64,000 bases of DNA from Uncultured Candidatus Berkiella sp. (GCA_964606325.1 CAZSGE010000010.1:9645-73644); one strand, 5' to 3'; positions 55,204-56,994 are shown, numbered from the stretch's first letter. Numbers and translations are program-made. The notes: generated from the sequence alone by a model not told the origin.

Positions 55204-56994
55204 CTAACCTACCGCGGCCACGGGTTGTTGCACTTCGATGGCTGATTGCACTGCCATGTCAACTTGAAGAGGTGCCACAGGCGCTGCCACGGCATCATTG
55301 GCTGCAACAGCAGGCGCAGATGATGCATTGCCAATGCCAGGAATATTTTGATCGGCTTGAACCACATCTTCGGTTTTCAGGATAGCATCGGCGGCTTTAC
55401 CCACAGAGCCATCTTGATAGTTGAAGGTAACATTATTAACAATTAAATTGCCATTAACCTTATGTATATCACCATCGCCAGTTAAATTGATTGATGCAAT
55501 TTTTAAATCACTTAGTGTATGGTATTCACCATTATCCATTTTTCCATCTTGATTACCATCTTGCCACATACCCAATTTATCCCAAATCGCATTGGACATA
55601 TCTAAGAGCCCACTCTTTTGATCTGCTAGCATTTGTAAGGCTTGCAAATCTGTTTTAGCTCCTTGCACATTATCAGTGAGAATAAAGTGTTTATTTTCTA
55701 TTGCGCCTTCGCCACCATAGTTATAGGTAAGCAACCCATCATTGGGGCCTACCCATCCTACCTTTTTATCAACACCGTCAATATTTAAAACAACTGAAGA
55801 GTCTTTAACAGAAGAAATGTCATAGCCATTATTATCGAGATCAAAGACAAGTGGGGCGGTACTTTGCTCATATTCATACTCACACTCAGATTCGGCACAC
55901 TGCAATTCAAACTCTTTCTTGTTATTAACCAATTCCCACTGACTTCCATTGCTATCTATGAAGTAGATAGTGGCATTTTCCTGGTAACTATTTGAAAAAA
56001 GATCGATACGGGGTAGATTAAAATACTCGTTATTTGTAATATTAACGTGAATACTTACAATAGGATTATCACAATTTATGGGTGCACAGAAACTTTCATC
56101 ACCTGAAGGAATTCGAATAATAAAGGTTTCGGGCGTGAAGTTTTCATATGTAGAGATTTTTGCAGAGTACGAATCAGGTATACCAGTATATGCCTCTACT
56201 CCACCTGCAACTTGACTCGCAACAATAACACCTTCATTTTTATCGCAAAAATATTCAAAAGTGAATTTAAATGCGTTATTAAGAATATTACTTATCTGTG
56301 TTAGTTCATCACTCGTAAAATAGGAAGAAGAGCTGCTCAGAGTTTGATCTACAGCTATATCAATAGGATTAACACAACAAGGCCCGCTCACTGCTGCTGG
56401 CACCTCAATAGGAAAAACAGGAAATGTATGATAAATCACGCCGAGAAAATCATTTTGAATGCCTAAATTTCTGGGCACACTTTGCTCCAGAATAGGCATA
56501 CCATAGCTCATTCTAAACGCTTCTGAAAGATGTTCGTCGAAAAAGAAAACAAACCCAAATGAGGGCGATAAAAGTGACACCACGCTCACATCATCTATAT
56601 TGACATTTTCTTCAACGGGTTTATCTAATGCTTGGTTTTCCTCTAATTTTTTCTCTTGAGCATTCTCTTGCGATTCTTCTTGAGTATCTTTCACTTCCTG
56701 TGCATCTTTTGCTTCTTTTGTGTCGTCTGTTTCTTTCTTTTCTTCTTCAGCAGCCTGCTTTTCCTCTTCCTTTTTTTCTTCCTCAAGGTTCGGATCACCC
56801 ATGTTAGGTTTAACATTTTTTTCATTTAAGGCTAATTGCAAATCAGGATCAAACAATGCTTGTTCATATCCAGACAATTGACCTGTAAAAGCTAAAAGCG
56901 TTTGTTCCAAGTTAACATTACCTGGCTGTGCTTTTTCAGTTGACGCCAATCGCGCCAGATCGCTGAGAATGTATTTTTCTGCTTCAAGGCTCAT
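55204..56994 (-). CDS. Acidic protein with C-terminal FrpC-SPM-like domain (paralogue of the RTX protein C-terminus)
   Basis: APLVFDLDNNG, VGWVGPNDGLL, AKTDL, LGMWQDGNQDG..DNGEYHTLSDLKIASI, GNL...YQDG...AD; E/K-rich N-terminus. Confidence 0.82.
   Translation of the reverse strand: MSLEAEKYILSDLARLASTEKAQPGNVNLEQTLLAFTGQLSGYEQALFDPDLQLALNEKNVKPNMGDPNLEEEKKEEEKQAAEEEKKETDDTKEAKDAQEVKDTQEESQENAQEKKLEENQALDKPVEENVNIDDVSVVSLLSPSFGFVFFFDEHLSEAFRMSYGMPILEQSVPRNLGIQNDFLGVIYHTFPVFPIEVPAAVSGPCCVNPIDIAVDQTLSSSSSYFTSDELTQISNILNNAFKFTFEYFCDKNEGVIVASQVAGGVEAYTGIPDSYSAKISTYENFTPETFIIRIPSGDESFCAPINCDNPIVSIHVNITNNEYFNLPRIDLFSNSYQENATIYFIDSNGSQWELVNNKKEFELQCAESECEYEYEQSTAPLVFDLDNNGYDISSVKDSSVVLNIDGVDKKVGWVGPNDGLLTYNYGGEGAIENKHFILTDNVQGAKTDLQALQMLADQKSGLLDMSNAIWDKLGMWQDGNQDGKMDNGEYHTLSDLKIASINLTGDGDIHKVNGNLIVNNVTFNYQDGSVGKAADAILKTEDVVQADQNIPGIGNASSAPAVAANDAVAAPVAPLQVDMAVQSAIEVQQPVAAVG

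Follow-up and report, generated by a model that had tools for sequence, protein, structure and literature searches.

What does an SPM (self-processing module) domain, described so far, to our knowledge, solely for its autocatalytic 'clip-and-link' activity and its use in protein engineering (NeissLock), do in a protein that lacks the catalytic aspartate? The question is raised by a 596-aa protein encoded in a 64,000-nt stretch of DNA (hereafter, the window) from an uncultured Candidatus Berkiella sp. (GCA_964606325.1, CAZSGE010000010.1:9645-73644), a Berkiella-like intracellular bacterium and amoeba symbiont. An earlier, sequence-only reading of the window had proposed that the SPM-like domain and the tail behind it act as a portable C-terminal module on diverse cargoes, possibly as part of an undescribed secretion or surface-anchoring system. 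Our analysis points to a more familiar route: the protein is probably a lineage-specific exoprotein, a substrate of a type I secretion system (T1SS), whose non-cleaving SPM-like domain would fold on calcium.

Residues 381–543 matched the SPM of FrpC in PDB entry 6SJW (phmmer, E = 4.3e-14), with homology spanning about 165 residues of the FrpC module. Foldseek with the full-length AlphaFold2 (AF2) model matched only the FrpC SPM structures 6SJX and 6SJW; the model is poor (pLDDT 46) and still matched 6SJX at E = 4e-4. Pfam and NCBIfam profile scans matched nothing over the module (the Pfam set scanned contained no PF26745 model), and precomputed annotation already assigns PF26745 ('SPM') to this protein and to all of its orthologues. 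These alignments show that aa 377–545 belong to the SPM family of domains. As Pfam already lists the domain and the protein already carries an SPM annotation, the basic finding is of a known kind.

The strings quoted in the sequence-only reading are all present (TAPLVFDLDNNG, VGWVGPNDGLL, AKTDL, and WQDGNQDG..GEYHTL), as is the alanine it had noted in place of the FrpC aspartate: Pro381 aligns with FrpC Pro415, which puts Ala380 at the position of the catalytic Asp414. The residue before this proline is A, S, E, or G in orthologues, never D, and A/S/E/G/K/P/F across wider relatives, so a conserved catalytic residue at the site is unlikely. In FrpC, the D414A substitution abolishes cleavage and ligation (PMC7846742), and G477 and G491 belong to the 'narrow port' by which the scissile bond is shielded (Kuban 2020, PMC7078468); here the port glycines are replaced by Thr440 and Asp449, respectively. 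EF-hand 3 is also gone (A457, Q459, S461, N468), a loss specific to the family of proteins with the cysteine domain described below (18 domains), and calcium site 2 is degenerate. Because the catalytic Asp, both port glycines, and one EF-hand are lost, the domain is predicted to be non-catalytic by the FrpC mechanism, that is, unable to clip and link.

Other elements of the module are kept, including calcium site 1 (D385, D387, N389, and G390 of the DxDxNG loop, with D419), calcium site 4, a canonical EF-hand-like loop (D479–E490) equivalent to FrpC D521–E532, the equivalents of the transient-site residues D478 and D579 (D441 and D535), and the tryptophan pair W414/W477 (FrpC W451/W519), which is invariant in orthologues. 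The survival of D441/D535, Pro381, and the tryptophans might be taken to mean that the module still processes itself through another scissile bond or another chemistry, but the anhydride mechanism depends on the side chain of the Asp, and FrpC D414A is dead (PMC7846742), and the port glycines have been lost as well; continued self-processing is, in our estimation, extremely improbable.

Lack of the Asp proved to be the rule for C-proximal copies, and Asp-less copies were the majority in our samples. When the C-terminal 222 aa were searched with HMMER, 9,479 cluster representatives matched at E <= 1e-3, and 3,309 did so at E <= 1e-10 (a word-index search with the same 222 aa alone returned a single fragment). 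Many of the representatives are giants with two to four tandem copies, and PF26745 matches usually lie in RTX/cadherin giants. Asp-Pro occurred in 19 of 350 domains from the best 159 proteins, and in proteins of at least 1000 aa it was found in 14/34 N-proximal and 3/241 C-proximal copies. In a second sample, picked by RTX similarity rather than by SPM similarity, 16 of 63 copies had Asp-Pro, 14 of these being N-proximal, and C-proximal copies had it in 2 of 23 cases. The counts come from 150 + 119 hits, and since both samples are biased, the proportions are indicative only. The port residues varied with the site: a Gly-Gly port was present in 14/19 Asp-Pro domains (12/16 in the second sample), and a non-Gly residue at the one port position with Asp at the other ('AKTD') in 247/329 domains without Asp-Pro. 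In 47 of 161 matched proteins, no more than 70 residues follow the last module, a length that fits an uncleaved T1SS signal.

These counts suggest that most natural SPM copies cannot cleave and that the Asp-less copies are a separate subtype adjoining the T1SS signal. We would extend this only tentatively, to a proposal that we think somewhat less likely to hold than to fail: the Asp-less 'AKTD-type' SPM may be a distinct and very widespread non-catalytic class, serving as a calcium-triggered C-terminal folding or ratchet unit of T1SS substrates, with the catalytic N-proximal FrpC type (Asp-Pro, two port glycines) in the minority. The 596-aa protein would then be a minimal example, with one module and a signal behind a non-RTX cargo, defining an SPM-type T1SS class and a compact natural secretion tag, and in its cysteine domain these intranuclear symbionts of amoebae would have a new fold for interaction with the host. 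We found no account of Asp-less SPM-like domains in the literature searched. Three things appear undescribed there: the division of SPM domains into catalytic and non-catalytic subtypes whose port residues co-vary, a small RTX-free substrate ending in a single Asp-less module, and the orphan cysteine domain.

The window itself contains two SPM modules, and only two, according to a six-frame search with a hidden Markov model (HMM). The other one, near 18555–19055, ends a 2727-aa protein, and its proposed homology to the module studied here stands far above chance: the C-terminal 227 aa of the 596-aa protein share 35% identity with the C-terminus of the larger protein (BLASTP E = 2e-30). The domain boundary is sharp, the similarity stopping upstream of aa 374. 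RTX repeats (PF00353, HemolysinCabind) were matched in the 2727-aa protein at E = 3e-7, whereas the 596-aa protein had no PF00353 match at E <= 1, in keeping with the earlier statement that it has no RTX repeats. No close orthologue of the 2727-aa protein was found in a search of 5.8 billion proteins (the best matches cover at most 25% of the query), and no T1SS genes flank its gene.

Three types of cargo were seen to precede an SPM-like domain: the cysteine-domain family, the 2727-aa RTX/cadherin giant, and protein P0011, which has a third N-terminus. Their N-terminal regions share low-complexity similarity only. The idea of a portable module and tail therefore stands in part: an SPM-like domain with a tail of ~50–60 residues does occupy the extreme C-terminus of proteins with unrelated N-termini, but homology between the tails is weak. 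Those of the 596-aa and 2727-aa proteins are alike only in length (51 vs 64 aa), in a near or complete lack of basic residues (0 and 2 Lys), and in their endings (..QQPVAAVG and ..EQPVFG). Homology between these two tails was dropped as a candidate after the family-tail HMM found no match.

Beyond the module, the general character of the protein is compatible with a T1SS substrate. The 51-aa tail without K, R, or H, the low isoelectric point (pI 4.15), and the absence of a hydrophobic N-terminus are consistent with such substrates, but T1SS signals, which are uncleaved, C-terminal, and about 50–60 residues long, have no diagnostic motif. The protein is acidic throughout (net charge ~ -61), no transmembrane-like segment was seen in it, and no Sec signal peptide was apparent by inspection, the N-terminus having no hydrophobic core. 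The tail is acidic to neutral, carries one Glu and three Asp, and ends in a conserved motif, VDxxVQSA[IV]E..QQ (aa 578–587). Three relatives within the family (P0019, P0043, and P0040) have natural poly-His ends (..HHHHHHSAHG, ..HHHHHAHV, and ..TTHHH, respectively) instead of the QQ..A ending of this tail.

We propose that the 596-aa protein would be exported in one step by a T1SS, with the 51-residue tail devoid of basic residues serving as the uncleaved signal. Export would begin with the C-terminus, and the SPM-like domain could fold on meeting millimolar extracellular calcium. It would thereby serve, where other substrates have RTX repeats, as the folding nucleus, preventing backsliding and stabilizing the protein. 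The payload would consist of the first 200 residues, disordered and acidic, with their VPRDLGI motif, and the cysteine-containing beta domain.

In published Berkiella genomes there are genes for an ABC/HlyD/TolC T1SS and for Dot/Icm, whereas Tat and the T2, T3, T5, and T6 systems are absent (PMC9803151). With Dot/Icm (type IVB) present in the lineage, the tail might instead be a translocation signal for an effector acting inside the amoeba host. The gene adjoins two genes for eukaryotic-like Ser/Thr kinases, proteins of a kind typical among effector candidates, P0011 adjoins an ankyrin-repeat gene, and the tail is rich in small and polar residues with Glu and Asp near its end; it has no clear E-block, however, and the gene lies in a syntenic, core-like putP-putA neighborhood rather than in an effector island. 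SPM domains have moreover been described in RTX proteins secreted by T1SSs, and their folding requires calcium at millimolar levels (PMC7078468), which the host cytosol lacks, and the conserved cysteine pairs fit an oxidizing compartment. The same module also ends an RTX protein in this window. We consider Dot/Icm export unlikely on this balance.

Type I export of modules of the same subtype is indicated by two giants with classical T1SS genes. P0021 (4291 aa) has three C-terminal modules that start with PP, TP, and AP, followed by 103 residues, and P0197 (4057 aa) has three that start with -P (preceding residue unaligned), LP, and AP, followed by 50 residues. In both cases, genes for a Peptidase_C39-ABC transporter and for an HlyD/AprE-type membrane-fusion protein immediately precede the gene of the giant, and an HlyC-family acyltransferase gene follows it. 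Giants ending in Asp-less modules bear RTX repeats and cadherin/Big domains. At loci L014 (4094-23426) and L015 (5729-22786), operons consist of genes for C39-ABC, an HlyD/AprE-type membrane-fusion protein, a small open reading frame, an SPM/RTX/cadherin giant, and an HlyC-family acyltransferase; the presence of HlyC there suggests lysine acylation of adhesin-like giants, beyond the pore-forming RTX toxins.

The operons bear directly on the suggestion that module and tail constitute a new, undescribed secretion system. Its appeal lies in the family-specific tail motif and in the lack of T1SS genes beside any family member examined, but T1SS substrates are often unlinked to their transporter genes, no conserved candidates for machinery adjoin the orthologues (their neighbors are putA, putP, VanZ, and suf genes), and relatives of the same subtype sit in classical T1SS operons. 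With the domain being PF26745, represented by ~9,500 cluster representatives, we did not retain this suggestion and judge a new system very unlikely.

We likewise found no evidence for surface anchoring. On the known T1SS route, the anchoring idea becomes one of export followed by retention, in which the SPM-like domain or the tail is a calcium-dependent anchor. Many giants bearing SPM-like domains are cadherin/Big adhesin-like, and the VDxxVQSA[IV]E motif of the tail is more conserved than is usual for T1SS signals. Characterized RTX adhesins (LapA-type) are retained by an N-terminal plug domain, though, and the N-terminal 200 residues here are disordered; nor is there a conserved adjacent partner gene save a glycosyltransferase gene, which is absent in one lineage. 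Retention at the surface seems to us unlikely.

Several observations weigh against export by a T1SS and calcium-driven folding. No T1SS gene was found in the window, in the readable parts of its two flanks, or beside three orthologues, P0011, or P0009, and the presence of a T1SS rests on the published Berkiella genomes rather than on the genome of the source organism. The 596-aa protein had no match to an NCBIfam T1SS-target model, and the family-tail HMM matched neither the 2727-aa RTX protein nor P0011. Calcium-driven folding is an assumption, since of the four calcium sites known from FrpC two are degenerate here, and AF2 models the SPM part poorly. A 236-nt contig with >=99% identity to the 5' part of the gene (window 56722-56951) came from one sequencing run with the flag 'RNA?' (X7, organism B), and this lone contig is no proof of transcription.

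The rest of the protein comprises a flexible N-terminal region and the cysteine domain. Residues 1–202 are disordered in the full-length AF2 model (pLDDT below 35) and include the E/K-rich stretch that the sequence-only reading had recognized (aa 61–135), followed by a linear motif, SVPRNLGI (aa 172–179; 56458-56481, minus strand), with the consensus VPRDLGI across relatives. The cysteine-containing middle domain was also correctly described: there are seven cysteines (206, 207, 250, 303, 308, 366, and 371), all within aa 206–371, of which Cys250 and Cys308 are invariant among orthologues and the GPCC nearly so. Modeled alone, aa 203–372 give a beta-rich fold with one long helix (pLDDT 84, pTM 0.81), for which Foldseek found no PDB relative (best E 0.66, TM < 0.25). 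This middle domain appears to be an orphan, confidently modeled, and would be among the more original parts of our findings, together with the lineage-restricted family and its conserved gene order. Its copy number varies among relatives from 1 to 4 or more (P0003, P0094, and P0126 were noted): the 596-aa protein has one copy, P0003 (locus L006) has two, and P0094, of 1220 aa, has several. In this respect it resembles extracellular modules that can be repeated. Once outside the cytoplasm, its conserved cysteines may pair in disulfides, and the domain may have a binding function.

Full-length orthologues come from metagenome-assembled genomes (MAGs) labeled 'Candidatus Berkiella sp.' or unclassified Gammaproteobacteria or Proteobacteria, including a 'Candidatus Berkiella sp.' relative at 50% identity; about 20 clusters at 50% identity have the same architecture. 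A scan of species-representative genomes found four MAG loci. The gene order VanZ - putP - putA - (270-aa glycosyltransferase) - SPM gene is common to three MAGs and the window, the glycosyltransferase being gone in one MAG. The same gene place in these genomes indicates that the SPM gene is vertically inherited and lineage-restricted, and no mobile cassette. The sequence also occurs in bioreactor, biofilm, activated-sludge, and freshwater metagenomes, which records presence only.

The glycosyltransferase gene directly upstream has its counterpart in the same position at locus L001 (49% identity) and at L003. Its product has no sequence relative in the PDB, and its weak Pfam match is to Anp1, a eukaryotic mannan-polymerase subunit. 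It is possibly a functional partner or a eukaryotic-like gene; a role as obligate partner is weakened by its absence from L004. On the other side of the SPM gene, the two kinase genes are absent from the syntenic position at the MAG orthologue loci and are likely lineage-specific effector candidates. The second kinase gene and the SPM gene are convergent, their stop codons 2 nt apart. Annotated genes elsewhere in the window (including 9095-10588 and 545-3073, both on the plus strand) encode GGDEF-EAL, TamB, aconitase, fumarase, and putA/putP products, an ordinary chromosomal context of ~38% GC.

The coordinates of these features are collected in Table 1. The SPM gene ends in a TAG stop codon (55204-55206), its start Met is common to orthologues, and a GAGG-type ribosome-binding site lies 7–8 nt before the ATG. 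One sigma-70-like match (TTCACC-17-TATTAT, 57107-57079) is a putative promoter; such matches are no commoner in the 5' region than in shuffled sequence, which leaves it a promoter candidate only.

Table 1 Features of the SPM gene, its product, and related or adjoining genes in the window.
Feature	Position	Strand	Remarks
Coding sequence of 596-aa protein	55204..56994	-	Intact reading frame; 65.3 kDa, pI 4.15; full-length orthologues 34-71% identity
5' region	56995..57107	-	Ribosome-binding site and one sigma-70-like match
N-terminus, aa 1-60	56815..56994	-	Short low-confidence helices, net negative charge, no hydrophobic core
E/K-rich low-complexity disordered stretch, aa 61-135	56590..56814	-	28 D+E, 12 K+R; pLDDT < 35
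Linker, aa 136-202	56389..56589	-	Contains family-conserved linear motif SVPRNLGI
Cysteine-containing beta-rich domain, aa 203-372	55879..56388	-	GPCCV, FTFEYFC, NCDNPI; AF2 domain model
SPM-family (PF26745) domain, aa 377-545	55360..55866	-	Predicted non-catalytic 'AKTD' subtype
Ala380 codon, GCC	55855..55857	-	Position of FrpC catalytic Asp414; Pro381 next
EF-hand-like loop, aa 479-490	55525..55560	-	DGNQDGKMDNGE; canonical, kept; FrpC D521-E532
Tail, aa 546-596, 51 residues	55207..55359	-	A14 V8 Q6 P5; no K/R/H/W/C; putative uncleaved T1SS signal
2727-aa RTX/cadherin protein	18357-26540	-	Cadherin, RTX repeats, one C-terminal SPM-like module
SPM-like module (18552-19061, Pro-Pro site) and 64-aa tail	18360..19061	-	C-terminus of 2727-aa protein
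272-aa GT-A-type glycosyltransferase	57166-57984	-	Directly upstream of SPM gene; DAD motif; weak Pfam Anp1 match, E 7e-9
Eukaryotic-like Ser/Thr kinase 1	51868-53100	-	Two kinase genes adjoin SPM gene
Eukaryotic-like Ser/Thr kinase 2	53231-55201	+	

If the Asp-less subtype is a calcium-driven folding unit, it would widen the view of how RTX-free T1SS substrates are pulled out of the cell, and the 220-residue module with its tail would be a candidate compact secretion tag. For Berkiella-like symbionts, our analysis provides a conserved candidate exoprotein with a new-looking domain and no evidence for a new secretion system.

Among known systems, the SPM of FrpC, FrpA, and ApxIVA (6SJW, 6SJX) has in common with the 596-aa protein the proline at the module start, the DxDxNG loop with D419, W414/W477, one canonical EF-hand, and the D478/D579 equivalents. 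Unlike FrpC, the 596-aa protein has Ala for the catalytic Asp and Thr/Asp for G477/G491, has lost EF-hand 3, has a degenerate site 2, and carries a five-residue loop deletion (AKTD subtype); its module stands at the far C-terminal end, whereas the FrpC module precedes an RTX block, and the protein has no RTX repeats. A second comparison is with giant T1SS proteins of the RTX/cadherin kind that have one to four Asp-less SPM-like modules near the C-terminus, of the same subtype (xP site, AKTD) and with a tail of 50–130 residues after it. They differ in their RTX repeats, their cadherin/Big domains, and their tail motif (..RL.QAMS.FG..), whereas the 596-aa protein is small and RTX-free, with a single module, an orphan cysteine domain, and no T1SS linkage. 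HasA-type proteins are non-RTX T1SS substrates with an uncleaved C-terminal signal. Like these non-RTX or RTX-poor substrates, the 596-aa protein has no N-terminal signal peptide, an acidic pI, and ~50 C-terminal residues poor in basic residues, but there is no sequence relationship between them, and in the 596-aa protein a predicted calcium-binding SPM-like domain directly precedes the tail.
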